A DNA stretch of 64,000 bases, from assembly GCA_963754945.1 (NCBI GenBank), contig CAVWIG010000031.1:1-64000 (forward strand). Direction: 5' to 3'. This stretch comes from Methanotrichaceae archaeon. Lineage in GTDB: Archaea; Halobacteriota; Methanosarcinia; Methanotrichales; Methanotrichaceae. Shown here one piece after another: positions 13,556 through 57,514 of the stretch; position 1 is the first letter of the stretch; each line of letters starts with the position of its first letter. Under the pieces are notes generated by a model. That model did no database searches, was not told the DNA's origin, and was given only the letters and a program-made list of their open reading frames with translations. The translations under genes were made by a program, and so were the position numbers.

Positions 13556-13571
13556 TTGTTTACCTCCAAGA

Positions 13572-40344: not shown

Positions 40345-40959
40345 TCAGCTAAGGTCGGGGAAATCAAATTGCTCCGGCACGAAGTTAGAGGCCCCAGCTT
40401 CGTATAGGTCCAGCTCGAAGATGGAGTATTCGATATCCGTTTCATTCTCTGTCGTCTGAAAGACCAAAGAAGGGTTGTAACGGTAGTAACCCAGGACGCT
40501 GCGGAACTTTCTTGCCTGGGCATCCCATAGATTGCCCACTGTAAAGTAGAGGCCGTAGCTACCGTCCTCTATTTTGTTGATCTTGTAGGAGTCTTTGGAG
40601 CGGATATAAACGGCCAGGATTGGCTTCACCTTGCTGTCGGTCAGCACAGCTACGGTGTCCATGGTCCAGTTGTTGTGTATCATGAGTTCACCGTAGCCGT
40701 TCCTGGCAAAGTCCTTGATGAGGGTGCCTGTCTCTGGACGGGCAATGGGTTGCGAAATCGCTGTGGAACATAAGAGAAAAAGCACAAATGCGATGCACAT
40801 GACAAGACATGCGTGGGCAACTGTTTCCTGCCAAAGGTGGGTCCAAAATGAAGAGAATCGCGATGGCAAAAGATTGGTCCAAGAAGACAGGTCAAGTCGC
40901 CCTTCAACCTGCATTGAGAAGATATCAGCGTTATCTGGAAGATCATATGTTGGCAGCAT
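40345..40959 (-). CDS. Secreted hypothetical protein, the integration target, with an element-derived N-terminus
   Basis: Signal-like hydrophobic segment followed by RPETGTLI..GELMIHN; contains the left repeat; start uncertain. Confidence 0.75.
   Translation of the reverse strand: MLPTYDLPDNADIFSMQVEGRLDLSSWTNLLPSRFSSFWTHLWQETVAHACLVMCIAFVLFLLCSTAISQPIARPETGTLIKDFARNGYGELMIHNNWTMDTVAVLTDSKVKPILAVYIRSKDSYKINKIEDGSYGLYFTVGNLWDAQARKFRSVLGYYRYNPSLVFQTTENETDIEYSIFELDLYEAGASNFVPEQFDFPDLS
40654..40737. repeat. Left att direct repeat (84 bp)
   Basis: GGTGTCCATGG...GTCTCTGG, identical to 57170-57253. Confidence 0.93.
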
Positions 40960-41723
40960 CTACAATTGAAAGCTACTTAAATAGAGTTAAGCTTTTTCTT
41001 CAGTGGGCAGAAACAGATAAACCATCAACCAACCAGTTTGAGAGCTATCGCGAAGTACTTCGCAAGAAGAACACACTAAGCTCTTACAATAACTGCTGCT
41101 GGTCTATTAAGCACTACTTCGCAATGAATAACCAGGTTGTCACCTTTAAGTGTGTCAAACCTAAGGACACTATTCCTTATTGGTTTGATGAAAATGATAT
41201 CATAAAGATATTTTCAGTAGTAAATAATGTCAAGCACTACGCTATGCTACAAGTGGCCTTCTTTGCCAGCCTGAGAGCAACAGAAGTCTGTGATCTAGAT
41301 ATAGAAGACATCAACCTTCAGGATCTGAGTGTAAGAATCAAGTCTGGTAAAGGTCGCAAACCAGCTCTGCTCTATATAAATGATGAGTGTGCTCAAGCAC
41401 TTCGCCAGTATCTAAGTGTCAGGCAGGAAATAACAATTGACAACAGGAGACCATTATTCACCACAGACTACAACCAGAGATATGATCACAGGAGTTTTTA
41501 TCAGGTATTCATGCGCTACAAGAAGTTAGCTGGCATAGAAAAGAAAGGAGCACTACATGTGTTTGCCAGACACTCATTTGGTAGCCTACTCATCAAACGA
41601 GGTTGCGATATCCTGACAACAAAAGAGTTAATGCGCCACAATGATGTCCACACCACAATGAGGTACTTACATATATCTGATACAGTCAAGCGAGAGAAGT
41701 ATGAAAAATACTTAACTATCTAA
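40848..41723 (+). CDS. Tyrosine recombinase/integrase
   Basis: LRATE (R), GKG (K), HVFARH, MRH and TMRY catalytic set. Confidence 0.95.
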   Translation: MKRIAMAKDWSKKTGQVALQPALRRYQRYLEDHMLAASTIESYLNRVKLFLQWAETDKPSTNQFESYREVLRKKNTLSSYNNCCWSIKHYFAMNNQVVTFKCVKPKDTIPYWFDENDIIKIFSVVNNVKHYAMLQVAFFASLRATEVCDLDIEDINLQDLSVRIKSGKGRKPALLYINDECAQALRQYLSVRQEITIDNRRPLFTTDYNQRYDHRSFYQVFMRYKKLAGIEKKGALHVFARHSFGSLLIKRGCDILTTKELMRHNDVHTTMRYLHISDTVKREKYEKYLTI

Positions 41724-42103
41724 CTCATTTCAAGAACGTCAAATTAGCATGAGAAGTTCTGTCATGTTAGCAGGTTGAGCTACCTGAACCAATAAATTTA
41801 TCTGTAGTTTAAAGAATAATCCTAAACTAAATGAGGGCAATTTTCTTAGTTCAACAAGTAGTTAGTAATATCTGGAGTGTTGTTAGTATAATTTTGGGCC
41901 CTTTGCTGGGTGCCTCTGTTGGTGTGTACTTAGGATTCTGGAAAAATCGTATGCACCAAAAAGAGCAAGATCACGATAAGAAACTGTTTTTATTGAGTTC
42001 TTTAAGACATGATGTAAGGAAAAGCATTGAACTTTTACATGAAAAGCATAGGAAAATAATTCCTGTAGATGCATGGAACTCGATTGTAAACTCAGGTAAC
42101 ATA

Positions 42104-43388
42104 GAGGGTTTCGATTTAGTGTTGGTTAATGAAGCCTTAAATTCTTGCGTTAATATTTTCAATCTTTATAGTGGTTTTTTAGCATATTTCACCCCTAAAT
42201 TGGCTTATTAGATTTCAATTTACCTTGTTGTTTCTAATTTTTGCGCTTTTTTAGAGAGCTTCCGCTAGGCTGTTTGTTTATGCACTAAATATTTCAACTG
42301 TTCCAGGTTGTAAACGACCGAATTCATCATGAATTTTACTCCAGCTCTTGCGACAGTTGTTACATAAACATGTGCTCCCTTATGCCCCCGCTTCATAACA
42401 GCGAAGCATCTTTCGATGTGCGATCGCGTTTTACTGATTCTCTTATTCCTCAGAAGATCTATGATTCCAAGCTTGTGACCTCTTGTAGCTTTTTTCATGG
42501 CTGCATCATATCCTCGAGTTTTTGCACCATCATATCCCTTATCGGCGTAACGTGGTAGCCCTTCAATTCCAAGATCTACCTGACTATCGTGTACAGAAGC
42601 AGTTGTAGTCTCAAAATATCTGATAAGGTGGTAATTGGTATCGATTGAGATATGACCTTTATATCCGAAAAAGGATTTGACACCCTTTTTTGCCCAACTT
42701 CCCTCATTTATTGGCTCTTCTTCGAGTCTCTGTGGTTTGGCCTTGTCATCAATAATATTATTTGAAATACCAATTAGCTCTTTATCAAACTCCTGATTCA
42801 GGCTCGTACTGGTGGCTTCGGAATCTTGACCTTCCTTTTTGTCCCCGCCTTGCTCGTCTTTCTTGTTCCTCTTCCGACCTGGGTCCGAAGTTATGAAGGT
42901 TGCATCCTGGATAGTGCCATTCTTTACAGTAAACCCCATCTCATCGAGCTGCCTTTGAAGCTCATTCCAAAGATCATCGTATACGTCGCACTTAATCAAA
43001 CGTTCACGGAATAGCCAAACTGTGCTGAAATCAGGAATTACTTCAGTGGTGCCAAGGAAAATACGAAAAGAGATCCTATCCGCAACCTGTCGCTCCAGTT
43101 CTGGATCTGTTAGACCAAACCAATGCTGAATTACGAGAGCTTTCACCATAATCACGATGTCAATGTTCGGACGACCTCCGCGGCTAGTTTTATTTTTGTA
43201 TATCAATGGTTCCAAAAATCTGAAACGCTCCCAATTGATCAACGATCCGATCTCGGATAGATCATCTCCGAGGGCTTTTACTCGAGCATATTCTGCTCGA
43301 ATGGCAAAATCAATGAGAGTCCTCATGCATTATATTATAGTATTAATAGTATATAAGTATTTCGATTGATTAGTTTTTCGAAACTCTC
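42104..43388 (-). mobile_element. IS5-family insertion sequence (1285 bp)
   Basis: TIR GAGGGTTTCGA/TCGAAACTCTC; 4-bp duplication CATA. Confidence 0.92.
42265..43326 (-). CDS. IS5-family DDE transposase
   Basis: GGRP, PDFST..FRERL, QDATF, GYKGH, ADKGY and RSHIERCF motifs. Confidence 0.93.
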   Translation of the reverse strand: MRTLIDFAIRAEYARVKALGDDLSEIGSLINWERFRFLEPLIYKNKTSRGGRPNIDIVIMVKALVIQHWFGLTDPELERQVADRISFRIFLGTTEVIPDFSTVWLFRERLIKCDVYDDLWNELQRQLDEMGFTVKNGTIQDATFITSDPGRKRNKKDEQGGDKKEGQDSEATSTSLNQEFDKELIGISNNIIDDKAKPQRLEEEPINEGSWAKKGVKSFFGYKGHISIDTNYHLIRYFETTTASVHDSQVDLGIEGLPRYADKGYDGAKTRGYDAAMKKATRGHKLGIIDLLRNKRISKTRSHIERCFAVMKRGHKGAHVYVTTVARAGVKFMMNSVVYNLEQLKYLVHKQTA

Positions 43389-43859
43389 CATAGTGCTTTT
43401 CAATCATGATCAAGCCATCGTTTTAAGTGATATCTACTTTAAAATACAGAATTATAATTTGGAAGCAAAAAGAACTAGGGATACATTGGAACATTTCGCT
43501 TCACTACCAGATGGGGTACCATTATACCCAGCTGCTTTGCAGGACCAAGCAAAATATGAAAGCGCAAAGGAACGTTTTGAAACGCTCGATAAGGTTTTGA
43601 CGATCCTCACGGAATCACTAGAAAAAGAGTTAATTGAACTTGAAAGCATAAATTGGTTCAAGGACAGATAATGTCTCTTTGAAAGCGTTGCCAAACTTAT
43701 TGACAAACTGATGTGTTCCTGTGGCTAGTTTATATACTAGAGCAAGCTTGATGGCTTGGTAAAAGGTCTGTGGCTTTGCCGTTATCGATCCAAAGTTCGC
43801 TTTTGTATTGTAAGCGAACTTCATTTTTAAGCGTAATTTTATAAAATAATCAATATGGG

Positions 43860-44970
43860 TGCTTGAGCGTGATACACTGTGACATACAAGTACTGAATGC
43901 TGTAACTTATCACTATTCAAACTATATAGATAAAATCGCAAGAATAATAAGGCTATGACACAATGTAGCACACTGAAGTATGAGCAATTATCCCAATTCA
44001 ATACAATTGGTAATATCCCGCAACATGCAACAGTTACAGTGTTCGCAGAAATGATTTTGACAAACCAACAGTAGCCAACAAGAAATAAGCATCTTTCTAA
44101 TCCTCTTGCGAGAGGGAAAGATGCTTTAAGTGACTGCATAGCAGCAAATGACGATCGATCTATCAGTCATGCAATGACAGCTTCCTTCATCCAAGGAAGC
44201 ACGCTAACATACTTAGTTTTCATCAATTTATGCCATACGGGGGTTATTTTTATTAATAATGTTATTTGCTCCATTAATTTGCATCCTGACAGACAAATGG
44301 GGGGGGGGGTAAGTAAGTGTGTGCGACACACTCTAATCTCATTCCCCTCATGGCATTCCCCCGGCTGGTAAACTGAGTTAGAAGGCAGGCGCTGCCTTGC
44401 ATACCCCCCCCCCGCTTGTCAGACAGGTTGCAAATTCAGGTTGTGAATCCAAGTCTGGGATACTGTTGTTGGTTGTTAAATAGAACTAGGAAAGTTTACA
44501 AATTGGTGGAGCACCGGAGTTTTGCAGCTTTAAATGCCAAATATAAAAATAACCCCCGTATGGCAGAAGCGTAAAATAGCCAGCAATTTGTAAAGAATTT
44601 TTACTGCTATCGATTTTATACAATTTCAAAACTAATGGAACAGCAGCAGCTGACCATTTCAGAGATGCAGGACACGCCATTTTTGGGTTTACAGATATTG
44701 AATTTTCGATTTTGTATCGCATCTCTTCTGTACTCCTCTCCTTCTTTAATTACTCTATAGACAACTCTCTTTAGATAATAGATGTATAATAGATACGATA
44801 CAAATGGGGGTGAATCAGTAACGGTGAGGCCAAAATTCGCGTGTCTCGAATGTACCCAATGTGGCGACTGATAGTGTATCGCCTGATTTGGGGTTGCTAA
44901 AATCGGGTCGTCTGATAGCCTACCCCATTTGAGTTGCTCCTTGGAGATTGGGCAGAAAAGAGGCATGAAC
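43860..44970 (+). ncRNA. Candidate large structured RNA or folded ssDNA region
   Basis: Many 8-35-bp stems, including a perfect 23-bp inverted repeat (44231-44253/44543-44565). Most wobbles are G-T on the plus strand. No convincing ORF. Confidence 0.45.
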
Positions 44971-45297
44971 CAAAAGCTTTAAATAGTAGACATTATTATA
45001 CGCTATAGACGATAAAAATTATTAATTTATCCTCTATAGACGATACAATTGTCCATTTGTATTAAGCATTTATATATAATTGGATTTCCGATCGGTGATT
45101 TTCATAAATGGTTGATATTAAAATGAATCGTTATGCCAAAAGGCGATCGGTGGGGTAAAAAGGGCGAAATTATGGTTGTGAAAATTAATATTCATTTGGT
45201 TATTATAAGATTGAATGAATTGAAATAAAAAATGATAAAAAAAGCAAAGAAATGATAAAAAATTTGGTATTTTGTGGCCAATCTTCAATATTCTATC

Positions 45298-45573
45298 TCA
45301 TGGAGATCTACTATGTTTTCGATACTTTTTGATGAGTTCCAAGATTTGTTGTGCCTTTTTTTCCTCTTCTGGCGTATCTGGAGTTTGCTTCAGCCTGCGC
45401 TCATATTCGTTTACCGCCGCATCGATTTCCTCTTGGTTGCCGCTACGTTCAGCAGAATGAATCTTAGCCAAACTAGTGATTATGTCCAAGACGCACAGTG
45501 GTTTAGGTTGACCTTTATCTTCCAACTCGTCTGTTCTTTTCTGCACTTTTTTAATTTCTTCTTCTATTTTCAT
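45298..45573 (-). CDS. Hypothetical helical protein
   Basis: ATGA coupling to the upstream gene. Confidence 0.7.
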   Translation of the reverse strand: MKIEEEIKKVQKRTDELEDKGQPKPLCVLDIITSLAKIHSAERSGNQEEIDAAVNEYERRLKQTPDTPEEEKKAQQILELIKKYRKHSRSP

Positions 45574-45803
45574 GATTTTACACCTTCCATCTTATCCAAC
45601 CTTGTTTTTATCTCTTCCAGGACTGGAGCTAGATCTTCTTTGGTTGCAGTTTCGTATGCTTTCAACCATACACTCGCTATCTGAAATATCTTGCCTGAAT
45701 GTTCAACCTGCTTGCCCTCTTGTATGATATCACTGATGACATCGCCTAAGATTCGCATCAAGTCTTTTGGAGTTTTCAATGTAACTCCTCTCGTTTTTGT
45801 CAT
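45570..45803 (-). CDS. Hypothetical helical protein
   Basis: GGTGAT RBS; C-terminal coiled coil. Confidence 0.75.
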   Translation of the reverse strand: MTKTRGVTLKTPKDLMRILGDVISDIIQEGKQVEHSGKIFQIASVWLKAYETATKEDLAPVLEEIKTRLDKMEGVKS

Positions 45804-45832
45804 TATTAATCACCTTATTTGATTAAGGTCCT

Positions 45833-45899
45833 CTAGTCTAACAATTGCTATGGACCAGCCATTAGTCCATGCCTACGACTTCAGTCGTAGGTTGTTGAC
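45833..45899 (-). repeat. Solo IS200/IS605 end resembling the 5' domain of HEARO/omegaRNA
   Basis: GTCAACAA-CCTACGAC-TGAA-GTCGTAGG-ATGGAC..GTCCAT-TTGTTAGACTAG. Confidence 0.6.
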
Positions 45900-45963
45900 C
45901 TATATACTTTGCGACAGTTTCCATATGCTGTGCTTCATTCACTAATTAGAATAAAAATAAACT

Positions 45964-46149
45964 CTATTCAAGATCCATTCCTGTCATGCTGTCCAAGAGT
46001 CTAATCACCTCTTCTCGCGTATGGTATTTTTCCAAAAAGATATCCAGAACATGGGCATCTGAAATTTGTCTCTCTCTCGTTATTCTTGCAAGCTCATTGT
46101 AATCTATATTAGTCTCTGCTTTACTTATTCTACTTATGATTCCTTTCAT
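45964..46149 (-). CDS. Hypothetical protein
   Basis: GGTGA RBS; part of the operon. Confidence 0.65.
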   Translation of the reverse strand: MKGIISRISKAETNIDYNELARITRERQISDAHVLDIFLEKYHTREEVIRLLDSMTGMDLE

Positions 46150-46155
46150 TATTAT

Positions 46156-46347
46156 TCACCTTACATAATATATTCCTTTGCCATTCATGAGTGCAGAAAT
46201 TTCGTAACGAGTTATGCCAGCTCTGCAATCTGGACTAATCCAAAGATGGCCCAAAGCGTCTGCAAAAGGATGAGCAGGATTATATCCCACTCCATTATAC
46301 TTGCCATTACTATGGGAGCAGCCACAAATGCAGCAAACAATTGCCAT
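46156..46347 (-). CDS. Small Cys-containing hypothetical protein
   Basis: CCICGC motif; operon spacing. Confidence 0.6.
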   Translation of the reverse strand: MAIVCCICGCSHSNGKYNGVGYNPAHPFADALGHLWISPDCRAGITRYEISALMNGKGIYYVR

Positions 46348-46349
46348 GT

Positions 46350-46712
46350 TCAGGTCTCCAAATTTACAAAAGTGCTCAATGTACCATTCATCCCAGGTGC
46401 AGCAGGCTTAACCCAGACTTGGATTGCTGCAAACACTCCCTCAACTGGTATATCCAAAGCCGGAGCACCTGCTGTTAGCGAAAATTCCGGAACTGCTATC
46501 TCACTATACATCCCATTGCCAATATCTCCTCGAATCACAACAAGAAGGTCATTTCCTGTGCACGAAAGTACCAGTTTTTTGCGCTTTGCAATGAGCACAG
46601 GCAAGGAGCAAACTATAGCATATTCATCTTGTACTGTGACAAAATCTGGGATATAGCCCATCTGTGCAAAATGAGAACCTAATATTATGTCTTCTATAGT
46701 CAAGTTACTCAC
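46350..46712 (-). CDS. Hypothetical beta-rich protein
   Basis: Alternating hydrophobic strands; overlaps the upstream gene. Confidence 0.65.
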   Translation of the reverse strand: MSNLTIEDIILGSHFAQMGYIPDFVTVQDEYAIVCSLPVLIAKRKKLVLSCTGNDLLVVIRGDIGNGMYSEIAVPEFSLTAGAPALDIPVEGVFAAIQVWVKPAAPGMNGTLSTFVNLET

Positions 46713-46887
46713 CTTTTGCGTGAATATCCTCTAATCTAACTGACCATGATGCCTTTTTCTTTCCTGCTTTAAACATTGGCACACGCGATTGAACTAATGA
46801 CGCTATCATAGCATCAACATCAATTTCGTGCCATGCTGCTAAATCTACTATTCTTATTATTCCTGAACTTGGTAAAATTGCTGACAT
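46705..46887 (-). CDS. Xis/AlpA-like helix-turn-helix protein
   Basis: RIVDLAAW..VPMFKAG..WSVRLEDI resembles the HTH_17 pattern; GAGGT RBS. Confidence 0.5.
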   Translation of the reverse strand: MSAILPSSGIIRIVDLAAWHEIDVDAMIASLVQSRVPMFKAGKKKASWSVRLEDIHAKGE

Positions 46888-46914
46888 AATTTCAACCTCA
46901 TATTAAAAGAGTAT

Positions 46915-47271
46915 TCAAATGGTATTCAAATAGGTCTCAACAGGATACATCTGGGTATCCAAATAGGTGCTTTTTTCTGAGTTCGTATGATTGGACGTTC
47001 CCCAATGAAAACTCTCAAATGTCTGGTCTAAAATGGCAGAATCTACATCATTGCTAAGATAGGGTAATGTCATGTAGTACTCGCTTGGATTTGTAGTATT
47101 TTTGCGCCGCTCCAACAGGAAACTAATTATCTTGTCATATGGTCTAGACCAAAGATCTGAAGGCCATTGACTGAAGAATCCTGTCCATCCTTTCTTAGAT
47201 ACTCTTAATCTCCATTTTTTTATAATTAGATTCTCATCCAATACTTTCAAAACAAAAACAGTATACATCAT
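46915..47271 (-). CDS. Hypothetical protein
   Basis: 118-aa ORF in the operon. Confidence 0.6.
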   Translation of the reverse strand: MMYTVFVLKVLDENLIIKKWRLRVSKKGWTGFFSQWPSDLWSRPYDKIISFLLERRKNTTNPSEYYMTLPYLSNDVDSAILDQTFESFHWGTSNHTNSEKSTYLDTQMYPVETYLNTI

Positions 47272-47372
47272 AAAAATGTCTCCTTGACTTCCTTGTTCTT
47301 CTTGCTGTTTGGCTGTATTTTCTTAGAATATATATTTCGTATTTTATAATTTTTTCTGCCCAATCTTCTCAT
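47268..47372 (-). CDS. 34-aa highly basic peptide (not in ORF track)
   Basis: MRRLGRKNYKIRNIYSKKIQPNSKKNKEVKETFL; GAGGT RBS; stop overlaps the next ATG (ATGA). Confidence 0.5.
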   Translation of the reverse strand: MRRLGRKNYKIRNIYSKKIQPNSKKNKEVKETFL

Positions 47373-47410
47373 GATAGTTAACCTCTTGCGTTTTTCTAAC
47401 TGCTATTCCT

Positions 47411-47575
47411 GCCGGCCTATTCTAACGAGAAAGGCCGGCTTGGAACCTATCCTCACTGTGAGGCAGTGATGCAGATCCTGGTATTTGCCCACCTCAGAGG
47501 TTCCATAATTAACTACCTCACCGTGAGGTAGTTTTCCCGTTGCTGGTTAGCGTCACTGTGGCGCTCCGGCTGGGA
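47411..47575 (+). ncRNA. Candidate structured RNA or ssDNA multi-hairpin
   Basis: Four consecutive domains including a three-way junction; three G-T wobbles all on the plus strand. Confidence 0.5.
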
Positions 47576-47803
47576 TGATGCCTCAGGAACTCGTGTAGTG
47601 ACCAAGGCTAGACTTTAATTTATTTAAGCTACAATATATTTCCTTGCTAGATATTTTGGGCCTTAAAACTCACTACAATGGCTCCTCTCATTCTCATAAA
47701 GTATAAGAAAGCAAGCCTTATCTGGTATGCTTAGTGTCAATCGCTATCTGCTGGAGCTTCATAACACTATATCAGTGCAAGAATATGATGCGCGTGTGCT
47801 ACA

Positions 47804-48034
47804 CTATGCCATAGTCCTGAGCGATATCAACCATCCTGTTTTGCCTCCTGGAAGACCTCTCATAGGCATCATATATATAGTTCCATGAATATACATTTCT
47901 TCCAATACTTTATCTAAGTCAGTGCCTAAAACATGTAGTTTCCTCTGGAGTGATCGCTTGGTTAGCTGGTGTCCTGGAGCTTCATCTAGAAGTTCAAAAA
48001 TATCAAAATTAGTTGTCACATTTTCACCTTTCAT
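47804..48034 (-). CDS. Winged-helix DNA-binding protein
   Basis: LTKRSLQRKL..DLDKVLEEM..GTI..GGKTGWLISL pattern. Confidence 0.6.
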   Translation of the reverse strand: MKGENVTTNFDIFELLDEAPGHQLTKRSLQRKLHVLGTDLDKVLEEMYIHGTIYMMPMRGLPGGKTGWLISLRTMA

Positions 48035-48267
48035 TACCGTAGTAGTTTAATTTAAATGTCCCCATGCTTGGTTCCTATTTTCTCGTGTTCAAATTAGATG
48101 TCACAACATTCAATCTCACCAAAAACGTTGCAAATGCATATAGAGCATCGACCAATTCTCTTACGAGAGGGTCGATGCTTTTAAGCGACTGCATAGCAGC
48201 AGATGACGATGAATGCATCCATCCTGTCCTGTTGGACATCCTTCCACTGCGAGTGAAGGATGTATAC

Positions 48268-49143
48268 TCAATCTGGAAGTAGTATCAACTTCTTATGATT
48301 GTAGCTACACAAGACATTTGACTTCTTCCTCTTGCCGTCTGCTATACCTTTGGCAACAGTTGCCTTGCATTTATCATGACTCAAACCCACTGACTGACCA
48401 GCTAACTCCAATTCCATTGTGGCAGAATTTTCATTTATATGATCAATTATCATACCAACCTTGAATGATTTAGTGATCAGCGTCTGAGTTCTGTTACCTT
48501 TATGAGATGACCTGATATCTGATAGTGCATTCCTTAAACACGTTTTTCCATAATTGCACTCATGGGATTCATACTGTCTGACAAACGGGGGGGGAGTGTT
48601 ATGCTGCGACGGCGCAGCTTTATAAAATTGTGCTAATACTCCGGTCCCGTCTGAGATTGCTGTGTTATAACCTGGTAGTGGGAGCCCTGTAAATGTTACG
48701 AAATTGTTACCGGGTGTTATGATTTCTAATGATTGATCATCACCAATTACTGTATTGAGTTTTTTGCAGTCAGGTAGATATGCCTTGCAAATTGCATGTA
48801 TGCCGTTCATTGAAGGCGAGTACTCACAATAAGCATTAAGGTCACTGACTATTGAACTAGCAGCAGGATTCAGGTCACCATTTTGATCAAAACAATCATC
48901 AAGATCTATCACAACGTAAGGTCTTTGGACTATAAATCCAATTCCTGCTAAACCTGGAGTGTGTTTCTGAAGTCCTGCTGCTCCATCAAATGTCATAAAT
49001 AAAGAATGGTCACTCCATTTGGCGTATCGCTTACCATCTAAACTGGGTTTCTTTCCTCCAGTGGTTCCTTTCATCCACGGTATCCAAATCTTTAAATCTT
49101 TAAGTTCTACCAGATATTCACTAAGTTTTATATTATTAAACAT
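48268..49143 (-). CDS. AEP-family primase-polymerase (Prim-Pol)
   Basis: GIGF, VIDLDD and EYSPSMNGIH motifs; helical PriCT-like C-terminus. Confidence 0.85.
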   Translation of the reverse strand: MFNNIKLSEYLVELKDLKIWIPWMKGTTGGKKPSLDGKRYAKWSDHSLFMTFDGAAGLQKHTPGLAGIGFIVQRPYVVIDLDDCFDQNGDLNPAASSIVSDLNAYCEYSPSMNGIHAICKAYLPDCKKLNTVIGDDQSLEIITPGNNFVTFTGLPLPGYNTAISDGTGVLAQFYKAAPSQHNTPPPFVRQYESHECNYGKTCLRNALSDIRSSHKGNRTQTLITKSFKVGMIIDHINENSATMELELAGQSVGLSHDKCKATVAKGIADGKRKKSNVLCSYNHKKLILLPD

Positions 49144-49280
49144 ATTTTGGGTCTCCTTGTTTTAAACTAAGTTAATGACTATGCTCAGCCTGTTGGCTTC
49201 GCTTTGGTTCAGACTGCTCCGTAGCAGGCTTCTATCACCCCCCCCGTTTGTCTGATGGGGTTGCGACATTTGGAGTGGGG

Positions 49281-49504
49281 AGTTACACTTATGTTACATT
49301 TGAGGTTACACTTTGAGTTGTGCTCACTGGTATTGAAAGTTACGGTTGTTACAATATTTTCCTGGTTTTGTGTTTCTTTCCTATAGATTATTTTTTGTAA
49401 AGATAATATTTTTGATTAAAAAGTGTAACAAGTGTAACTTTAGGTATGCAGAGGCTGTTTTCAATGTGTAACTTAAGTGTAACTTAAGTGTAACAAGTGT
49501 AACT
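49281..49504. other. Putative iteron origin of replication
   Basis: Five GTTAC(A) copies, an AT-rich spacer, then six inverted (A)GTGTAAC copies, directly after the helicase stop. Confidence 0.8.
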
Positions 49505-49512
49505 TTCATTGC

Positions 49513-51000
49513 CTATTGAATCAATTCCTTTGACAGTTGCAATATTGTGATATCATAATCAGCCTTATTAAATGTCAATCCTGGAAATCCTCTTACTGTT
49601 TTATCCTCAACCTTCAATGTGCTATCCTTAACCTTCAATTTGCCTACCATTGGTTTTCTACCTAACAACGTTGTGATTAGATGTCTGAATCTGTACCTAT
49701 TTTCAAGGTTACCCCCGGTTAGGTTCGCCCATTCTGTAAATTTCTCAAATAATTCAGTTGTTGATATATTCATATCATAACCGTCATCGTCGCAAAATAA
49801 CTCGAAGAAGGTTGTAACTGAATTTATTAGAGTTTCTTCATCTTCTTCTTCTTGCTCAGGATGTCTATCTGGTATCTTGCCTAAAGCTATTATACCTGGC
49901 ATTCTTTTAGCAATTATATTTAGCAGACCAGATAGTTCTTCCGGAGTGGTCATCTTTTCTAAGATTTTGGGATCATCCTGGCGTTGGTTGAGTTTGGATG
50001 AGTCTACACTGGACACGAATTTGTAAGGTAAGAATGTCTTTCTGTATCTTCTCTTGAACCCATACGAGGCATCAGCGAATTTTGGAATACTGTTGCCTTT
50101 GAATAACATCTTGGTGAACGGTAAGTATCTGCACCTGTTCTTCTCATACTTTACATCACTTGATATTCTGTCCCCTCCGGAGATCTCCTTTATCTTACCT
50201 GTTCCTGAAGCATTGACTGATTCAACTTCATTCACTATAGAGAACCTAGCGTTTTCTAAGTTGCTTAATGCAAATCTGCCTTCAGAAACTTCTCTTAATG
50301 ATAGGCCTTCGATTGATTTTGCACCATAAAATTTCTCTATAAGGTGAACATATTGGCTTGATCCCGTAGAACCATGGCCTATTATGAAACCTATGAACAT
50401 CAGCGCCTTTCTATATGCACCTGAAGCTAAGATATCAAACAGCGTCTCATGGTCTGCTTCAATAGGCGTAATGGAATTGATGAACTTGCTAATCTCTGGA
50501 CAGGTTGCATCTGGGTTATAAGTGACAGGTATAGGATCTGTGATATAATCTTCTTTCTTGTAATCTCTGAAGGTTCCCGTATCAAGTTCCAATACTCCGT
50601 TTTGACAACCTAATAGATTTGGATATGGATCAAATATAACAGGATGCAACGATAGTTCAATTCTGATCAATGCTAATACCTCTGATCTGGCGTATTTTAA
50701 CGCCTTATCTCCAACTGCATTCTTTAAGAAAAATTCAATAATCTGTACACCATTTTTCCTGTAAATCTTGCCATCAAATATATAAATCGTTTCATCATTT
50801 TCACGCATAGCAAGAGTGCATTTCTCTAATATCGCGTTGGCTGCTTTGGTTGGGCTTAGTTTCATAATTTCCTTTCCTGTATCCTTATCAAATTTTCCTG
50901 TGCCATATAGTAATTCATCTGTGGTTATATTAGGCAATACAGGTAATACAGTGCTATTAATTTCTGTTGTTATATTATTATTGCTAGACATATAATTCAT
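49513..51000 (-). CDS. P4/D5-like SF3 helicase (D5_N + ATPase)
   Basis: LLGCQNGVLEL and YNPDATCP; degenerate Walker A GHGSTGSS; IVNEV and KEISGGDRI motifs. Confidence 0.9.
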   Translation of the reverse strand: MNYMSSNNNITTEINSTVLPVLPNITTDELLYGTGKFDKDTGKEIMKLSPTKAANAILEKCTLAMRENDETIYIFDGKIYRKNGVQIIEFFLKNAVGDKALKYARSEVLALIRIELSLHPVIFDPYPNLLGCQNGVLELDTGTFRDYKKEDYITDPIPVTYNPDATCPEISKFINSITPIEADHETLFDILASGAYRKALMFIGFIIGHGSTGSSQYVHLIEKFYGAKSIEGLSLREVSEGRFALSNLENARFSIVNEVESVNASGTGKIKEISGGDRISSDVKYEKNRCRYLPFTKMLFKGNSIPKFADASYGFKRRYRKTFLPYKFVSSVDSSKLNQRQDDPKILEKMTTPEELSGLLNIIAKRMPGIIALGKIPDRHPEQEEEDEETLINSVTTFFELFCDDDGYDMNISTTELFEKFTEWANLTGGNLENRYRFRHLITTLLGRKPMVGKLKVKDSTLKVEDKTVRGFPGLTFNKADYDITILQLSKELIQ

Positions 51001-51016
51001 TCCTCGTATTTTGGTT

Positions 51017-51277
51017 TTATACTAATGTTGATTTACTGAAATAGTCTTCGTGTTTTTGTATACTTACGATAGCCTTAACCAGGTTGGTGATGATTTTACC
51101 TGATTTAATTTCAAAAAACAACAATGGACATCTTATTTCTACAAGCTTTGCACAAAATGTTCTGTTATCTGTTCTTCTACAAAATACTATTTCATTTAAC
51201 AGGTTATTCTCTATTGTCTCACAAAATTCTTCATCGTCATGATTAATATATACAGTAGTCATTCTAATCATCCTCAT
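51017..51277 (-). CDS. Hypothetical protein, possible Sm/Hfq-like barrel
   Basis: IVFCRRTDNRTFCAKLVEI..LLFFE..IITNLVKAIVSI pattern. Confidence 0.55.
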   Translation of the reverse strand: MRMIRMTTVYINHDDEEFCETIENNLLNEIVFCRRTDNRTFCAKLVEIRCPLLFFEIKSGKIITNLVKAIVSIQKHEDYFSKSTLV

Positions 51278-51333
51278 TCCTTAATCAAATCTATTCATGT
51301 TAAAAAATAGTTGGTATTCGTTATCGATTTTTC

Positions 51334-51612
51334 TTATTCTATTGTTGCTTCGTCTACCAATTCTGCTATCACATTATTCATTCTCTCTCTGTTTTCAGCT
51401 TGGTTGATCATTATGTTGAGAATCAGCCTCAGAACCTCAATATTTTCTACTTCTTCCGCTAAATCTAATATATCTTGCAATGTCAGCAGGCGACAGTAGT
51501 CCATTTCTCTAAGTTGTGAATCTGTTGCCTCTTCTATCACGCTGTCAAACGCGTATTGTTCAAGATCTTTAATTTCTTGCTCTGTTAAAATTGATTCATT
51601 ATTGTTACACAT
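51334..51612 (-). CDS. Acidic hypothetical protein
   Basis: GGTGA RBS; very Glu/Asp-rich. Confidence 0.7.
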   Translation of the reverse strand: MCNNNESILTEQEIKDLEQYAFDSVIEEATDSQLREMDYCRLLTLQDILDLAEEVENIEVLRLILNIMINQAENRERMNNVIAELVDEATIE

Positions 51613-51740
51613 GATTATTCACCTTTAAAATGTTGGTATTCGTTAGCGATCTTACGAACCCAGTATCAGTGAGGATAGTGATGCCAAACACTATAAACTA
51701 ATGCTGGGTGTGGAAACATAATGTTATTCGTTATTGATTC

Positions 51741-51965
51741 TTAAGAGATGCCTCTGGACCATTCGTGACCTGCTGGCTTTATAACCGCTTCTCCAAATTT
51801 AATAATATTGGGGATATAGACATAACAGAATACCTGCCTTCCAAGCTCAAGTTGTATATATGCTCCCATGGTGCTTGTTAGAATGCCTTTATAATACTCG
51901 TTGCTGTTCAATTTCAATCTAACTTCTTGTCCTTTATGTTGGGATAAATATTCTTCCAGTATCAT
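51741..51965 (-). CDS. Possible LSm/Hfq-fold protein
   Basis: LSQHKGQEVRLKLNSNEYYKGIL resembles the Sm1 motif; YVYIPNI is Sm2-like. Confidence 0.55.
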   Translation of the reverse strand: MILEEYLSQHKGQEVRLKLNSNEYYKGILTSTMGAYIQLELGRQVFCYVYIPNIIKFGEAVIKPAGHEWSRGIS

Positions 51966-52297
51966 AGTTTTTCCCCCAATTCTGACAATTTTTGTTTTAC
52001 GTTTCTTAATCTCTGAATTGATAACAATCGTTCTTCTAACTTTGTAGCCAGCTTTTGATTGCGTTTTGTTTCCTCTTCCATTTGCTCCATGAGTTCCTCA
52101 TTTTTGTCCTCTGGATCAGGTTCAGCTTCATCTACCAACTTATCTTCTTTTTGAATTATTGAGGGGTCGAACGCTGCAGGATTGAAAATTAACTCAGTTT
52201 TTTCTTGCTTCTTGATGACCTTATCTCTGTTCTGAAATTGTAAATACGCTTCTCGCTGTGCATCCTGCAAATTGCAAAAAATTTTGGTCTTTTCCAT
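51962..52297 (-). CDS. Coiled-coil hypothetical protein
   Basis: Operon coupling; C-terminal heptads. Confidence 0.7.
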   Translation of the reverse strand: MEKTKIFCNLQDAQREAYLQFQNRDKVIKKQEKTELIFNPAAFDPSIIQKEDKLVDEAEPDPEDKNEELMEQMEEETKRNQKLATKLEERLLSIQRLRNVKQKLSELGEKL

Positions 52298-52300
52298 ACT

Positions 52301-52741
52301 TTATGCACCTTCTATGATCCTCATCGACTGCTGGTACTCCTGGTTCAAGCTCAGGCCTGTAGATTCATCTATACTTGACCATACCTCAACTTCTTTCTCT
52401 ATTTGTGAGACATTGGACTTGAAAACCATTGTATTCATGCGTCTATTAAACAATTTTTCTACGTGCTTGAGGTTTTCTTTTGCTATTGCTACTGCTGATT
52501 CGCGTTCGTTTGCCTCCAGGTTTTTATATAATTGGTACGCAGTGTCATTATTATTTGTTACTATTTCCTTAATTAGATTCTCATCATCAGATTTTATTAC
52601 TGGTTGCTGGGATTTGATTTCGAGAACATTCTTGACTTCTTCATAATCAGTAGCCATGCTTTTTAGAACATTATACTCCTTCATCGTGATCATTTTGTTG
52701 TTCATTAAATTATTTAATTCCTGTAATGTAAAGTCCCTCAT
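52301..52741 (-). CDS. Hypothetical helical protein
   Basis: GGTGAT RBS. Confidence 0.7.
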   Translation of the reverse strand: MRDFTLQELNNLMNNKMITMKEYNVLKSMATDYEEVKNVLEIKSQQPVIKSDDENLIKEIVTNNNDTAYQLYKNLEANERESAVAIAKENLKHVEKLFNRRMNTMVFKSNVSQIEKEVEVWSSIDESTGLSLNQEYQQSMRIIEGA

Positions 52742-52747
52742 TTTATA

Positions 52748-52909
52748 TCACCTATTAAATTCTTCTGGTTTGTGCTTATTCATAAATTCATTCAAGGCCA
52801 TTTTGCATAGGTCTGTAAACCTTAGGCCACTTTTCTTCATGAACGCTTCTATTATTGCATCTTCTGCAAAACTTACTGACATGCTTCGTCCATACTTTTT
52901 AACAACCAT
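52748..52909 (-). CDS. Ribbon-helix-helix (CopG-like) regulator, 53 aa (not in ORF track)
   Basis: MVVKKYGRSMSVSFAEDAIIEAFMKKSGLRFTDLCKMALNEFM; GGTGATT RBS; first gene of the replication operon. Confidence 0.75.
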   Translation of the reverse strand: MVVKKYGRSMSVSFAEDAIIEAFMKKSGLRFTDLCKMALNEFMNKHKPEEFNR

Positions 52910-53383
52910 TTTTAATCACCTTAATTAATCACTTGTTAATATTCAAACTTTAAAAAAAGACATTCAACACAACGAAAAGAAAAGAATTAAAAAGATGTAA
53001 CTCTTTCACTTCTATTCCTCTTCTCAATTATAGCAACACCACTTTTCGCTATGCGATGGCATCGATATGCAGTGGCATTATGAAAAGTCACCAATATCAG
53101 TAGCCATTTTATAACGATTAATCATTGGAATATATTAGATGCTTGCCATTTTTCCAAAATCCATTAATCTGGGCCCATTTTGTAATAAGTAACACTGTTA
53201 TAGTTGCAATTCCCGGTATTCATATTCGAAGACTAATGGGGGGGGCCAAGATGTGCTCCTTTTTATATTATATACTGAATAGCAGCATAACAATAACCCC
53301 CCGTTTGTCTGCCAATGGTAGCAATGATGAATGAAGAAATATTATTTCAAGGTAGTAATAATAGTGGCAAAAAAATAACGCGA

Positions 53384-55540
53384 TTAAAGCTTCAAGGTTA
53401 ATGGAGGGAATAGAGCTTTGATCGCATCAACGCTGGTCCTGTCCTTTTTGGTCATGGAATATTTCTTGGACTGGATAGCTTCATTGGTTTTCAGGCTGCT
53501 TTTGACCTGGCGTTTACTGAGTGTCATACCATAGAGTTGATAGTAGACCTGGATTAAGCAAGGCAAGTTAGCGTTTAACTGTAGCATTTGGTATTGTTCA
53601 TAGAGAGTCATTGGTTTACCTGGAGGTGGGTCCCCTTTTTTGTACCGGGGTTTGACTCCTATCTGGGTTGGCACATCAGAAGTTACTTCGAAATCCTTAG
53701 GTACAATCAATAACCCATCCATTCCTTGCAATTTGGGTAATGGAACGTCCTGAGCAAACACAAGGCTATAGAATGTATCCTGACCTGATAAGAGTAGATC
53801 GATGACCCTGGTAATCTTCCAAGTTACCTCAAACATCCTGATTTTATGGTCCCGATGGCGCAACTTGGCATCCTTGTAATATGTGGTGTTAGACACTGGT
53901 TTGTTATCAGTGTACTCCTTTAGTACATCATCACTAAGTTTAATATCGTCATCATGGGTAGGTATGTCCTTTTTATCATCCTCTAGAATTTCATCCTCAA
54001 TTTTATCAATCTCAGATGGTTTGGCTGATGGAAATACGCCTGTGACTCGTTGATATTTGGACCTGGGAATATGTAATGGCAGTGCGCACTTCAGGCGGCA
54101 ATTATCCTTGAATTCTAATTTGAGATGGCTTCCTTTGAAACCTGAAACTGTTTCGTCTCGTGTGTGGCAGTCGTCACCTGTTTGGTCTTTAGGAGATTTA
54201 CAATTGGAGCAGTCAGCTTTGGTCCAACGATTGTTATTCCAAATTTGGCATGGACCTATGTAGTATTTCAGTGAGTACTCGTATTCCTGGTGCTTATGTT
54301 TGGCGTTAAATTCGTTGATGATCATTAATTCAGTTTGAATGTTGTAAGATTGGTGCATTCCTCCATTGGTAGCCTTTACTCTTACCTGTCCTGGGAATGA
54401 GTAGTTGATCTTGTTTTTGTTCCCCACTGTATCCTCGCTGGTTATAGGCGTTTTGGCGCTCCATTTAGTAGATTCCTGGACGTAGTGATGATAAGGTGGC
54501 TCACCTGTTGCTTCATCATACTTCGTGAGTTTTTGTTTAAGCTTTGATATATCGCACCCCATGCGATACACCTTGTGATGAACTGGATGAATTAAACGGG
54601 AATCGTTATCGTAGATTAGACAAATGTGTTCAGGTCTACTATCAACGATATAGCACCTACCACGATCAAACCTGCGTATTTCCTGTAGTTCACTATCAAC
54701 ACAATATCCTAGAGCACTATCCTCCTTTTTGGTGTCGTATACCTTTTTTGGGTAGTGGCTTTGTGGGAAAGCAGTTTGGGTATAGAGCAGTTTACCAGTG
54801 TGTTTACCTTTGTGCATGTTATTGTCGCTGTAGTGATTGAATCGCCTGAATGGATCGATACACTTAGGCTCAGAATAAGGTGTCCAAACATGGTCAACTA
54901 TCCTGGAAACCAAACCCAGCTTATTAGATTCGCGCCAGATATCAACAGAGCCATTTATATTAATCAAGTGATCCTGGGAATCAGTGAACTCAAACTGGTA
55001 ATCCTTGTTATCCCAATATGCTTCGTACATTTTGGGTGCGACCAGAGGAGTCTGGGATCTGTCCCTGGCATCAGGTATATCAGGTGTTACCTCATCAATA
55101 TGGATTACATTGCAATCATCGACAAGATAGGTGTCCCATATTTTAACGAAATCTCTGGTCAGTTCGTGGTATTTCCTGGGTATATCCTTAGCTGGTTTAG
55201 TATACACGACTTCAAATTCGTGATCACCAAAATCTGTGACTAATTTGAATGCCCTCAGGTTCGCGATTTGTTCGAGATACTCAGTATAAGTGTAGTGTTC
55301 ACGCCTTGGATCAGCAGCTAAGAATACATTAGGTTGTGCGATTGGATTTAGTGGAGCAGAATATACCTTATGCAATTCCTTATTGTAACTATAAGGGGGA
55401 GCTTCATACGAATACTCCTTGTGTTTGCGAACCTGTTTGCTTATAACTTTGCATCCTGCATATTTGTCCCTTATGGCTTGTAACGCTGCAATGACAGCAA
55501 CATCATAATGAGTTACTGCATTGGTATCTGTTACTGTCAT
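53384..55540 (-). CDS. Large orphan protein (718 aa)
   Basis: Long ORF with GAGGTGAT RBS; no motif recognised. Confidence 0.8.
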   Translation of the reverse strand: MTVTDTNAVTHYDVAVIAALQAIRDKYAGCKVISKQVRKHKEYSYEAPPYSYNKELHKVYSAPLNPIAQPNVFLAADPRREHYTYTEYLEQIANLRAFKLVTDFGDHEFEVVYTKPAKDIPRKYHELTRDFVKIWDTYLVDDCNVIHIDEVTPDIPDARDRSQTPLVAPKMYEAYWDNKDYQFEFTDSQDHLININGSVDIWRESNKLGLVSRIVDHVWTPYSEPKCIDPFRRFNHYSDNNMHKGKHTGKLLYTQTAFPQSHYPKKVYDTKKEDSALGYCVDSELQEIRRFDRGRCYIVDSRPEHICLIYDNDSRLIHPVHHKVYRMGCDISKLKQKLTKYDEATGEPPYHHYVQESTKWSAKTPITSEDTVGNKNKINYSFPGQVRVKATNGGMHQSYNIQTELMIINEFNAKHKHQEYEYSLKYYIGPCQIWNNNRWTKADCSNCKSPKDQTGDDCHTRDETVSGFKGSHLKLEFKDNCRLKCALPLHIPRSKYQRVTGVFPSAKPSEIDKIEDEILEDDKKDIPTHDDDIKLSDDVLKEYTDNKPVSNTTYYKDAKLRHRDHKIRMFEVTWKITRVIDLLLSGQDTFYSLVFAQDVPLPKLQGMDGLLIVPKDFEVTSDVPTQIGVKPRYKKGDPPPGKPMTLYEQYQMLQLNANLPCLIQVYYQLYGMTLSKRQVKSSLKTNEAIQSKKYSMTKKDRTSVDAIKALFPPLTLKL

Positions 55541-55546
55541 CGTTTA

Positions 55547-55771
55547 TCACCTCTTTAGACTATTAGCAGATTTGGCCATTTTTAACCTCTTTTTATTCGC
55601 CTTTTCCTTTCTAGTACACTCTGCGCATAAGAATGTTATTTTGGGAAATTCCATACGTTTCCAACGACTGTGCTTGCGTTTGGCACAATGTACCACGAAG
55701 ACTATGTTTGCTGGAAGAAAATCTCCTGCAAATTCGAATTTTCGTTGGCAGCCATCACATTCAACGTCCAT
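55547..55771 (-). CDS. Small zinc-finger protein
   Basis: CDGC...CAEC; basic tail. Confidence 0.65.
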   Translation of the reverse strand: MDVECDGCQRKFEFAGDFLPANIVFVVHCAKRKHSRWKRMEFPKITFLCAECTRKEKANKKRLKMAKSANSLKR

Positions 55772-55829
55772 GTTTTTCGTCTCCTCTGCTTTCGCTATTC
55801 ATTGTATTACTACTAGTAGTGGTAACTAT

Positions 55830-56075
55830 TTAAGGTTTTTGCTTCTCCTTGAGTTTTGCCACAAATAGTGTGCGAATTTCGTTAGGAGTCAATCCTAATT
55901 CGCGAAGTGTTTCAACTGTAGCTGCAACAAAGTCATCTATCTCATCTTTCGTAATGACAGGTTCAACTACTCCGTGTCCCCACTTCCTGCTTTGGCAGTT
56001 GGGACACTTAACTGGACTCTTTATTAATTGAGGCCATTCATACCCACATTTTAAGCACTTATGCTTGGGTATCAT
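55830..56075 (-). CDS. Zinc-ribbon protein
   Basis: CLKCGYEW..PVKCPNCQSRKW. Confidence 0.75.
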   Translation of the reverse strand: MIPKHKCLKCGYEWPQLIKSPVKCPNCQSRKWGHGVVEPVITKDEIDDFVAATVETLRELGLTPNEIRTLFVAKLKEKQKP

Positions 56076-56076
56076 C

Positions 56077-57039
56077 TCATTCGCACTCCTTAATCCACTT
56101 TTCTAGCAACGTTTTCAGTGGTTGGAGACACCTCTCCTTTCTGGGTACTCTCATGAATGGGATGAATGACATCTCTTCTGTTTTAGTTATAGGCTTGACT
56201 CTTGTGCCGTACCATTTCCATTCATTTTTCCACTGCTTCATTAGCTTGGTGTTTTCTACTGCATACTTTCCAGTGGGAACCATTATCTCTTTGGGAACCG
56301 GCAGCTCATGAATCCAGCAACCCCTAACTTTGAGAGGATCATCATCCGGTAGATCATTAGCAACAAACGCTACAATCTCGTTCTTGATACCATTTTTATT
56401 CCAGTAATGTCTGCCTACCCAGTAATCGTCCATCTCGATTCTGAAATCATCATAAGGCTTATCTGGGTTACTCTTGTTATATCGTATTCCGCTAGATTTA
56501 ACCTCAAGCGTGATCACTCGCGATGATTCTACAACCTTAACCATAACAGTGTTTCCCGGTGCTTCTGCTGCTAAATCTGCACCATATCTGAAGATTCTAG
56601 CTGCTTCCTCGCTAAGTTTCTTGCCGCGTTTCCTACGAACCTCATCGTAAAGCTCTTTGCTGAAGTGTATGACATCAGAAGGCGAAGGTTCAGGATATAT
56701 CTCAATTGGGTTTCTAGCGCGCATTAAATTAATTTCAATACCTGTTAAGTAACTTTTGATACCAAGATCAACCAAGATTCTTCTGACAAGTCTAACAGCT
56801 TTCTCGTGATCTGGATCTTCCTTAATGTAATATCCTACAGGTTTTTCCGGAAGTCTGCTCACATAGGTCAGTAGCCTGTGTCCTTTGAAAGTGATAACAG
56901 ACTTACCATCTTCATGCGTTTTCTTACACAGGTGTCTGAGCGTCTCGTATTCACTATCAGTGACATCTATATACACTGGTTCTAGTGTGGCAAACTCGTA
57001 TACTTCTATTTTTACCATCTTTATCATCTCTATTACCAC
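56077..57039 (-). CDS. Hypothetical protein, possible PD-(D/E)xK nuclease
   Basis: HE...GADL...LEVKS spacing. Confidence 0.6.
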   Translation of the reverse strand: MVIEMIKMVKIEVYEFATLEPVYIDVTDSEYETLRHLCKKTHEDGKSVITFKGHRLLTYVSRLPEKPVGYYIKEDPDHEKAVRLVRRILVDLGIKSYLTGIEINLMRARNPIEIYPEPSPSDVIHFSKELYDEVRRKRGKKLSEEAARIFRYGADLAAEAPGNTVMVKVVESSRVITLEVKSSGIRYNKSNPDKPYDDFRIEMDDYWVGRHYWNKNGIKNEIVAFVANDLPDDDPLKVRGCWIHELPVPKEIMVPTGKYAVENTKLMKQWKNEWKWYGTRVKPITKTEEMSFIPFMRVPRKERCLQPLKTLLEKWIKECE

Positions 57040-57109
57040 TACTAATGGTAGTATAACTATTTAAAGATTTCGCTACCACTGTTTGCTGGCACAAGTGGCA
57101 GGTAGTTAT

Positions 57110-57478: not shown

Positions 57479-57514
57479 CCATTGAAATCTACTTAAATAG
57501 AGTTAAGCTTTTCT
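57364..57514 (+). pseudogene. Relic integrase 5' fragment
   Basis: MKRIATTQN*SRK..RYLKDRVLAPSTIEIYLNRVKLF is collinear with the first ~50 codons of the integrase at 40848. Confidence 0.85.

Follow-up and report, generated by a model that had tools for sequence, protein, structure and literature searches.

A duplicated, covarying hairpin module beside the primase-polymerase gene of an integrated archaeal element: a candidate replication signal

The Sulfolobus plasmid pRN1 depends for its replication on a 100-nt stem-loop, the putative origin, which lies 3' of the primase-helicase gene orf904. This stem-loop still functions when moved, its structure but not its sequence is conserved, and it is preceded by a small hairpin that directly follows the stop codon and is dispensable (PMC4234260). 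On the IncQ plasmid RSF1010, the 40-nt hairpin signals ssiA and ssiB are required by RepB', a primase resembling the archaeo-eukaryotic primases (AEP); RepB' binds beside the hairpin, and its primer begins within a GTG triplet, 4-6 nt to the 3' side (PMC8567376). GTG(A/G) is a recognition site of the NrS-1 primase-polymerase (PMC8718748). Here we describe a module that occurs twice in a 64,000-nt stretch of DNA (the window; contig C31, CAVWIG010000031.1) from a Methanotrichaceae archaeon whose genome assembly (GCA_963754945.1) comprises 2.97 Mb in 54 contigs. It is a real, structured, two-copy cis element of an integrative element that encodes a primase-polymerase (PrimPol) and a D5-like helicase. 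It belongs to no known family; in its logic it is nearest to the pRN1 stem-loop and the ssi signals and is a member of neither. With a probability of roughly 0.3, the two copies are cis-acting replication signals of this integrated replicon, acting as folded single-stranded or extruded DNA.

The PrimPol gene (48268-49143, minus strand, 291 aa) lies directly downstream of a D5_N/DUF5906 (SF3-type) helicase gene (49513-51000, minus strand). Pfam gave no match for the PrimPol open reading frame (ORF), while an alignment of it with six homologues matched "Primase" chains in the PDB (E 2e-22) and primase families in PHROG (E 6e-21). On the strength of these sequence matches, ORF 48268-49143 is classed as an archaeo-eukaryotic-type primase-polymerase, in agreement with the first-pass annotation, an earlier reading of the bare sequence that had placed one copy of the module right after a Prim-Pol stop codon. 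We take the matched PDB chains to be the NrS-1 enzyme, a name that the search output does not give.

Anatomy and covariation of the two modules

Module A occupies 44087-44202 and module B 48143-48265; they are direct repeats on the same strand, 4,056 nt apart, and both are described here on the plus strand. The sequences that the first-pass annotation had quoted for a duplicated module are present in the window at these places. Each copy folds into four hairpins, P1 to P4. In module A, P1 (44087-44126) consists of an 11-bp stem (arms 44087-44097 and 44116-44126, 100% complementary), a 4-nt bulge TAAT, a 5-bp stem and the loop TGCG; counted over 44088-44125 the lower stem has 10 bp, to which the A-T pair 44087/44126 can add an eleventh. 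A near-invariant 30-mer follows at 44126-44155, running from TTAAG to GACGAT, and it holds GTGA (44130-44133) and P2 (CTGC-ATA-GCAG, 44134-44144). The 5' strand of P3 (44148-44170) is the invariant ATGACGAT, and P4 (44180-44200) pairs GCTTCCTT with AAGGAAGC around a 5-nt loop. In module B, P1 (48144-48179) has a 10-bp stem (arms 48144-48153 and 48170-48179), the bulge AATT, a 4-bp stem and the loop TACG; it can equally be parsed as a 9-bp stem, the bulge CAAT and 5 bp including one T-G pair. The 30-mer lies at 48181-48210, with P2 at 48189-48199 and GCGA in place of copy A's GTGA. P3 (48202-48223) is GATG-AC-GATG paired with CATC-CATC, and P4 (48236-48263), which is 4 nt from the PrimPol stop, pairs ACATCCTTC with GAAGGATGT and contains an inner stem of 3-4 bp with a GCG loop.

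The copies combine invariant with covarying parts. The P1 foot of 7 bp, the inner stem of P1 and blocks of the 30-mer (TTAAG to GACGAT) are identical between them. The 30-mer differs at only two positions (one Y, one R), and its 24-nt core occurs twice in the window and in 0 of 100 shuffles; short shared motifs such as GACGAT showed no enrichment. The middle of the lower P1 stem covaries, reading TTT/AAA in A and GAC/GTC in B with the 4-nt bulge retained. P3, a hairpin additional to those of the first-pass annotation, starts at ATGACGAT; its 3' strand diverges between the copies with pairing kept. Both modules close with a TCCTT/AAGGA hairpin (P4) whose closing pairs differ between the copies. 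The P3-P4 linker and the flanks cannot be aligned.

We fitted an alignment to this structure. It contains 36 pairs in the four hairpins, and 97.2% of its cells are standard pairs. Five pairs have changed on both sides: the lower P1 stem accounts for three, which are consecutive, and P4 for the other two. This bears out the compensatory substitutions and the differently closed terminal hairpins of the first-pass annotation. When the 3' partner was slid by 1-3 columns as a control, 0-1 two-sided changes and 37-54% pairing remained. The observed values were reached in 21 of 500 shuffles, about the limit attainable with two sequences. A covariance model built from copy A alone detected copy B with 57 bits (E 1e-13); the window gave no other notable match. 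Under DNA parameters, both strands of both copies take the chain P1-P2-P3-P4 as their fold of lowest energy (z -4.8 to -6.2 against shuffles); under RNA parameters, P1 and P4 recur throughout and the middle differs (z -3.7 to -5.4).

Because blocks of sequence are invariant, changes in the stems are complementary and the linkers cannot be aligned, the modules are likely, rather than proven, to be old copies selected for both sequence and pairing. The first-pass annotation had proposed that selection acts on structure. The clustering of complementary changes in stems supports this within the limit set by two sequences, and the near-invariance of the 30-mer adds a component of sequence. Proof is a different matter since the arms of a palindrome can also stay alike through templated repair.

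Templated repair enters a further explanation, which we consider improbable: that the copies are recombination or module-boundary repeats flanking a 3.9-kb accessory block that is exchanged or excised, or that they are the relic of a duplication kept complementary by hairpin-templated repair. The repeats are direct, as such a role would suit, and the flanked block is variable. By tblastn, eight related loci contain nothing that matches the nine small minus-strand ORFs between the modules (45298-48034), but they do have matches to the integrase, PrimPol, helicase and two other genes (the gene split by an insertion sequence, at 41831/43366, is among the matching genes). Against this, no joint between the copies was found in three DNA runs of one study, a point of little weight since their cover is very thin and fragmentary, and no recombinase is encoded between them. 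The arms, 11 bp long and 16-18 bp apart, are unlike the core sites of tyrosine recombinases, and invariant blocks beside unalignable linkers indicate selection and not neutral decay.

There are several ways to read the loop and the strand on which it would act. The only substitution in the P1 loop falls where UNCG and GNRA alike allow any nucleotide. The first-pass annotation had read the loop as UNCG on the plus strand or GNRA on the minus strand. The plus-strand half of that description stands. On the minus strand the most stable register is CGCA/CGUA, and GNRA (GCAA/GUAA, closed by C-G) appears only after a one-base shift. Two further pairs changed on one side only (A-U to G-U and C-G to U-G), and both pair on the plus strand only (they would be A-C on the minus strand), though the alternative parse of B avoids both.

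These features would suit a plus-strand small RNA gene that spans P1-P4 and is antisense to the operons: its loops would be of the UNCG type (UGCG, UACG), both one-sided changes would be G-U pairs, and a U-rich single strand would separate P1 from P2. We regard such a gene as very unlikely. A TATA-like box 22-26 nt upstream of P1, the pattern of the element's own promoters, is absent on the plus strand in both copies, the upstream flanks are not conserved, and copy B has no T run after P4. Moreover, two of two changes being compatible with G-U is expected one time in four by chance.

Position of the modules and candidate functions

Module B, 4 nt from the PrimPol stop codon (48268-48270, minus strand), takes up the space between that codon and the transcription unit that comes next. 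The minus strand has a T5 run 18 nt past P1 of module B, and then a TTTAAAT box that precedes the start of ORF 47804-48034 by 22 nt. Module A is embedded in a unique non-coding stretch of 1.6 kb (43672-45297) that has no credible ORF. Starting 25 nt from it is a nested giant hairpin of 340 nt (44228-44568), which is single-copy. Its outer arms measure 26 bp and are 96% complementary, its inner arms measure 33 bp and carry G10/C10 runs, and two arms with GCG loops lie within; the fold of the whole has z -8 on the plus and -10 on the minus strand, and it is a candidate origin or large structured RNA. The same region has an AT-rich stretch (44960-45290) with 22-nt iteron-like direct repeats of 86% identity, spaced 31 nt (44996-45017 and 45027-45048; also 44751-44762).

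This layout permits a second reading, namely that the modules act in minus-strand RNA as the 3'-terminal domain of transcripts: for B the helicase-PrimPol mRNA, for A a transcript that crosses the non-coding region. After the stop codon, P4, P3 and P2 would follow one another and P1 would close the RNA before a T-rich tract, either protecting the 3' end or yielding a small RNA derived from the 3' untranslated region (UTR); a protein, possibly an Sm-like one of the element, would bind the invariant single-stranded stretch. The order of parts at B fits this scheme, with the PrimPol stop, 4 nt, the hairpins, T5 18 nt past P1 and then the TATA-like box of the next gene, and at A a T-rich stretch likewise follows P1 on the minus strand. 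The minus-strand folds are stable (z -3.7 and -4.2), the loop changes at the N of a register-shifted GNRA or of UNCG, and the replication operon includes an ORF (51741-51965) that may be Sm-like. Transcripts that end in a hairpin and a U tract, and Hfq- or Sm-bound 3'-UTR small RNAs, resemble this arrangement, which on the minus strand has a strong terminal hairpin (P1) after a stop codon, then T-rich sequence, and a single-stranded A/U-rich stretch beside a hairpin; the Sm-like ORF lies in the same element.

We place the minus-strand RNA reading, the main rival, close behind the replication signal, and hold it likewise to be less likely than not. The small-ORF operon upstream of A has its last gene ending at 45298, with minus-strand T6-T7 runs directly after it; because of these runs module A is not simply the 3' UTR of that operon and would require a transcript of its own. 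Past P1, the T tract is weak in A and distant in B, a terminator scan flagged neither, and the invariant 30-mer and three further hairpins exceed what a plain terminator needs. The two one-sided changes pair on the plus strand only, with the reservation about the alternative B parse given above, and the Sm-like assignment is weak.

A third reading takes each intergenic block as a composite. Its core would be a plus-strand promoter (a TATA-like TTTAAG box, the CTGC-ATA-GCAG palindrome as operator and a start at ATGACGAT) that drives a structured antisense or non-coding RNA, with P1 as a separate insulator or terminator; the RNA from B would be antisense to the 3' end of PrimPol, and that from A would continue into the giant hairpin. 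At four likely promoters of the element, TTTAAA(T/A/G) precedes a leaderless start by 22-26 nt, and the plus-strand distance from TTTAAG to the invariant ATG is exactly 23 nt in both modules. Boxes of a similar kind (AGCTTTAAAT) are present at 44526 and 44975, and a plus-strand T5 run lies past the giant hairpin near 44600. A promoter would also account for the core being conserved in sequence and not in pairing, with conservation ending just past ATGACGAT. It remains improbable: hexamers like TTTAAG are common in DNA of 38% GC, the modules are copies of each other, so that the shared spacing is a single observation, the tiny ORFs from the ATG (9 and 16 codons) are not conserved, and the covariation of P1 and P4 as one unit is left unexplained.

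The reading we favour, a DNA replication signal, draws on the comparison with described systems. As at pRN1, module B stands directly 3' of AEP primase and SF3 helicase genes, which module A does not; structure is conserved with the stem sequence free to change, and a small hairpin after the stop codon is followed by the main structure. Unlike pRN1, which has one copy of a single stem-loop of about 100 nt and a fused primase-helicase, the element has two modules, each with four hairpins of 11-40 nt and an invariant 30-mer, and separate primase and helicase genes. In sequence the two are not similar; module A had no blastn match among 72,556 plasmid records, a set whose inclusion of pRN1 was not checked.

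With ssiA and ssiB the modules share that there are two similar, complex, hairpin-based signals on an element encoding an AEP-fold primase. P1 itself is a hairpin of 36-40 nt with an invariant foot and 3' flank, present in two similar copies, which is the pattern of an ssi-type site. RepB' starts its primer at GTG a few nucleotides 3' of the hairpin, and copy A has GTGA 4-7 nt 3' of P1, while copy B has GCGA. The ssi signals lie on opposite strands within one oriV, whereas the modules lie on one strand and 4,056 nt apart, are three times longer and have no sequence relation to them.

Satellite phage P4 offers another comparison, having two cis replication regions, ori and crr. Like the element studied here, it is an integrative element with a primase-helicase and two related cis sites that are kilobases apart, one of them beside the replication gene. 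In P4 the sites are short double-strand iteron arrays bound by a winged-helix domain and the primase is of bacterial type, whereas here the sites are covarying hairpin modules. Binding of origin repeats by the P4 alpha protein is mentioned in the pRN1 report (PMC4234260).

Under the favoured reading, the element's SF3-type helicase would open the duplex and one strand would fold into P1-P4. The replication proteins of the element would then read the foot of P1, which is invariant, together with the invariant 30-mer 3' of it, and this would lead to helicase loading or primer start. Module B occupies the position of pRN1's essential stem-loop, directly 3' of the primase and helicase genes, and module A lies within an origin-like non-coding region that has the giant hairpin, the iteron-like repeats and the AT-rich stretch. 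The anatomy, the covariation, the placement relative to the genes and the identities of primase and helicase are shown by the sequence analysis, whereas DNA as the folded molecule, binding by proteins of the element and any part in replication are inferences. A DNA-level signal is favoured because (i) the position 3' of replication genes is that of the pRN1 stem-loop, (ii) the pattern of conservation is ssi-like, with GTGA, a sequence of the NrS-1 type GTG(A/G), 4-7 nt 3' of P1 in copy A, (iii) the surroundings of copy A are origin-like, (iv) both copies fold alike with DNA parameters on either strand (z -4.8 to -6.2) and (v) one of seven related loci, L039, also repeats about 60 nt of its post-stop sequence near GAACAGGT repeats.

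Several observations weigh against a replication signal and keep its probability low. No relative of the module was found, and its structure rests on two sequences. Six of the seven related PrimPol loci have no second copy of their post-stop sequence, and no related PrimPol locus matches the covariance model (best E 0.36). The modules lie on the same strand 4 kb apart and not, as ssiA and ssiB do, on opposite strands in one origin; GCGA in copy B against GTGA in copy A means that a GTG-type start site is not conserved; and four short hairpins replace the one long stem-loop of pRN1. UNCG- or GNRA-like tetraloops that vary only at the free N are more typical of RNA, and the element seems, on a weak model-based assignment, to encode an Sm-like protein.

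Relatives, rejected identities and related loci

The first-pass annotation did not recognise the family of the module, and our searches agree. Rfam covariance models gave no match at the gathering score across the whole window, and at E<=10 over 43800-48600 they gave five weak matches, none overlapping either module. A gathering-score match is lacking for any Rfam family, including hammerhead, twister, pistol, hatchet and HDV-like ribozymes, C/D and H/ACA RNAs and group II intron domains. The suggestion of a ribozyme-like motif thus finds no support as far as known self-cleaving ribozymes are concerned, the Rfam ribozyme models being without a match. ARAGORN found no tRNA or tmRNA gene in the window, and we rejected a tRNA-derived attachment site along with them.

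The first-pass annotation had named an IS end or a simple terminator as identities that would overturn it. Neither was found. Only two copies of the module exist in the 2.97-Mb genome (blastn; nhmmer, next best E 5.3), they are direct and not inverted repeats, and the neighbouring insertion sequence (IS), an IS5 copy (42103-43378), ends 700 nt from module A; we therefore rejected an IS end or a miniature inverted-repeat transposable element (MITE). A MITE beside module A was likewise set aside, as 44203-44600 is single-copy in the genome. A scan of 40500-57600 for intrinsic terminators, taken as a G+C-rich stem with at least 5 T among 8 bases at a distance of 0-2 nt, found 12 sites, against 11.4 expected from shuffles, and the modules were not among them; as the consensus used is bacterial, the scan is a weak test for an archaeon.

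Protein coding was also rejected, since the plus frames of A have stops and the minus frames of A and B lose register twice inside P1. A 72-aa plus-strand ORF over module B matched only itself among 5.8 billion clusters. The DNA upstream of module A is not the relic of a second PrimPol gene: tblastn gave fragments only (E 0.18-0.8), and hhalign of ORF 44616-44966 against the PrimPol alignment returned a probability of 0.5%.

The two-copy covariance model (R2), a search that the first-pass annotation had proposed, gave no match with stricter filters in any of 104 other genomes of the family or in 150 other genomes of the class, 74 of which are of the same family. Copy A had no blastn match in the genomes of 60 relatives. 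With filters off, R2 was run on eight loci around PrimPol relatives (39,815 bases); the best E was 0.36, and the 15 matches at E<=10 were short or poor. A match of model R1 on loci L004-L006 (E 1.8) lies antisense within an integrase ORF and was judged to be chance. In the loci and the whole genome, nhmmer gave no further match to the module below E 1.9. Phage matches came from 34 records of Escherichia and Salmonella phages, all 31 nt long with E>=0.03, and were likewise judged to be chance. A 19-base pattern of the module had no match in IMG/VR, and the helicase, a 718-aa protein and the PrimPol alignment had no relatives there.

PrimPol itself has relatives in 25 of 104 other genomes of the family. 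Its closest relative is P0001, at 50% identity. In the named genome collection there is only one relative, from a Methanotrichaceae metagenome-assembled genome, which makes a host of that family probable. The module is in none of the loci around the closest PrimPol relatives. Within the same genome, PrimPol-like matches occur at two further places, C21:22333-23160 (with one in-frame TAA, in a second element that has 60-bp att-like repeats and its own integrase) and C18:185418-185771, and the module has no copy at either.

We compared the 260 nt after the PrimPol stop with the rest of its own element at seven related loci. The post-stop sequence recurs at one of them, L039 (G019:C2; E 4e-12), where about 60 nt after the stop, comprising a hairpin and a conserved tail, is repeated in inverted orientation 3.8 kb away. 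The copies lie at 10694-10750 and 14529-14590 and share 30 identical nucleotides. The second adjoins seven GAACAGGT repeats (14400-14480), just outside an ISL3 copy whose limits were mapped (13081-14383). The L039 element is 18 kb long, with att repeats at 1379-1439 and 19302-19362 and a terminase-like ORF at 15878-16654. Counting the window, two of eight elements pair the 3' flank of PrimPol with a second copy near origin-like repeats, which is a hint and not a rule.

The integrated element and its wider interest

GC content drops from about 0.5 to 0.35-0.44 across roughly 40-58 kb of the window. From this profile and the bounding direct repeats we delimited an integrated low-GC element of about 16.8 kb (40654-57512). 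The bounding repeat (40654-40996 and 57170-57512) is long (343 bp) and only 78% identical; it spans the 5' part of the target gene, so that the element appears to carry its own version of that gene end. The element has almost all of its genes on the minus strand; a tyrosine integrase is encoded on the plus strand (40809-41723). The IS5-family copy at 42103-43378, with an IS5-type transposase, has 64 blastn hits in the genome and very high depth in three metagenome runs. It interrupts one gene, the two parts of which (41831-42211 and 43366-43671) lie next to each other at L042 (15800-15480), a related locus.

A perfect 21-bp direct repeat (49421-49441 and 49486-49506) lies in the 370 nt that separate the helicase gene from PrimPol. 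The likely promoters of the element (n=4; at 48056-48050 and in the regions of 49166-49160, 57065 and 41807) have a TTTAAA(T/A/G) box 22-26 nt upstream of a leaderless start codon, and this spacing suggests that the element's transcripts are mostly leaderless. ORF 51741-51965 (minus strand, 74 aa), in the replication operon, has a Pfam LSM hit below threshold (E 0.003, 17.6 bits; cut-off 23.4). Its AlphaFold model, of low confidence (pLDDT 55), has one helix and 4-5 strands in an Sm-like topology, and the top Foldseek matches of that model in the PDB are almost all Sm, LSm or Hfq chains (E 0.2-0.9, probability at most 0.99).

How replication starts is largely unknown for the integrative elements and plasmids of methanogens that carry a PrimPol and a D5-like helicase. 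A tested archaeal precedent is pRN1, whose cis site is defined by its structure and not by its sequence (PMC4234260). The module described here is known from one assembled genome, which limits its wider weight. It does provide two natural variants, with built-in compensatory changes, beside a small expressible PrimPol, and so forms a compact system in which sequence- or structure-specific priming or loading could be tested. Tentatively, the modules may prove to be ssi-like signals read by an NrS-1-type PrimPol and a D5-like helicase, the first in an archaeal mobile element and co-evolving with their enzymes, or else a new class of RNA, a 3' domain of replication-gene transcripts held by an Sm-like protein. 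An RNA acting with the Sm-like ORF would point to RNA-level control in archaeal mobile elements.

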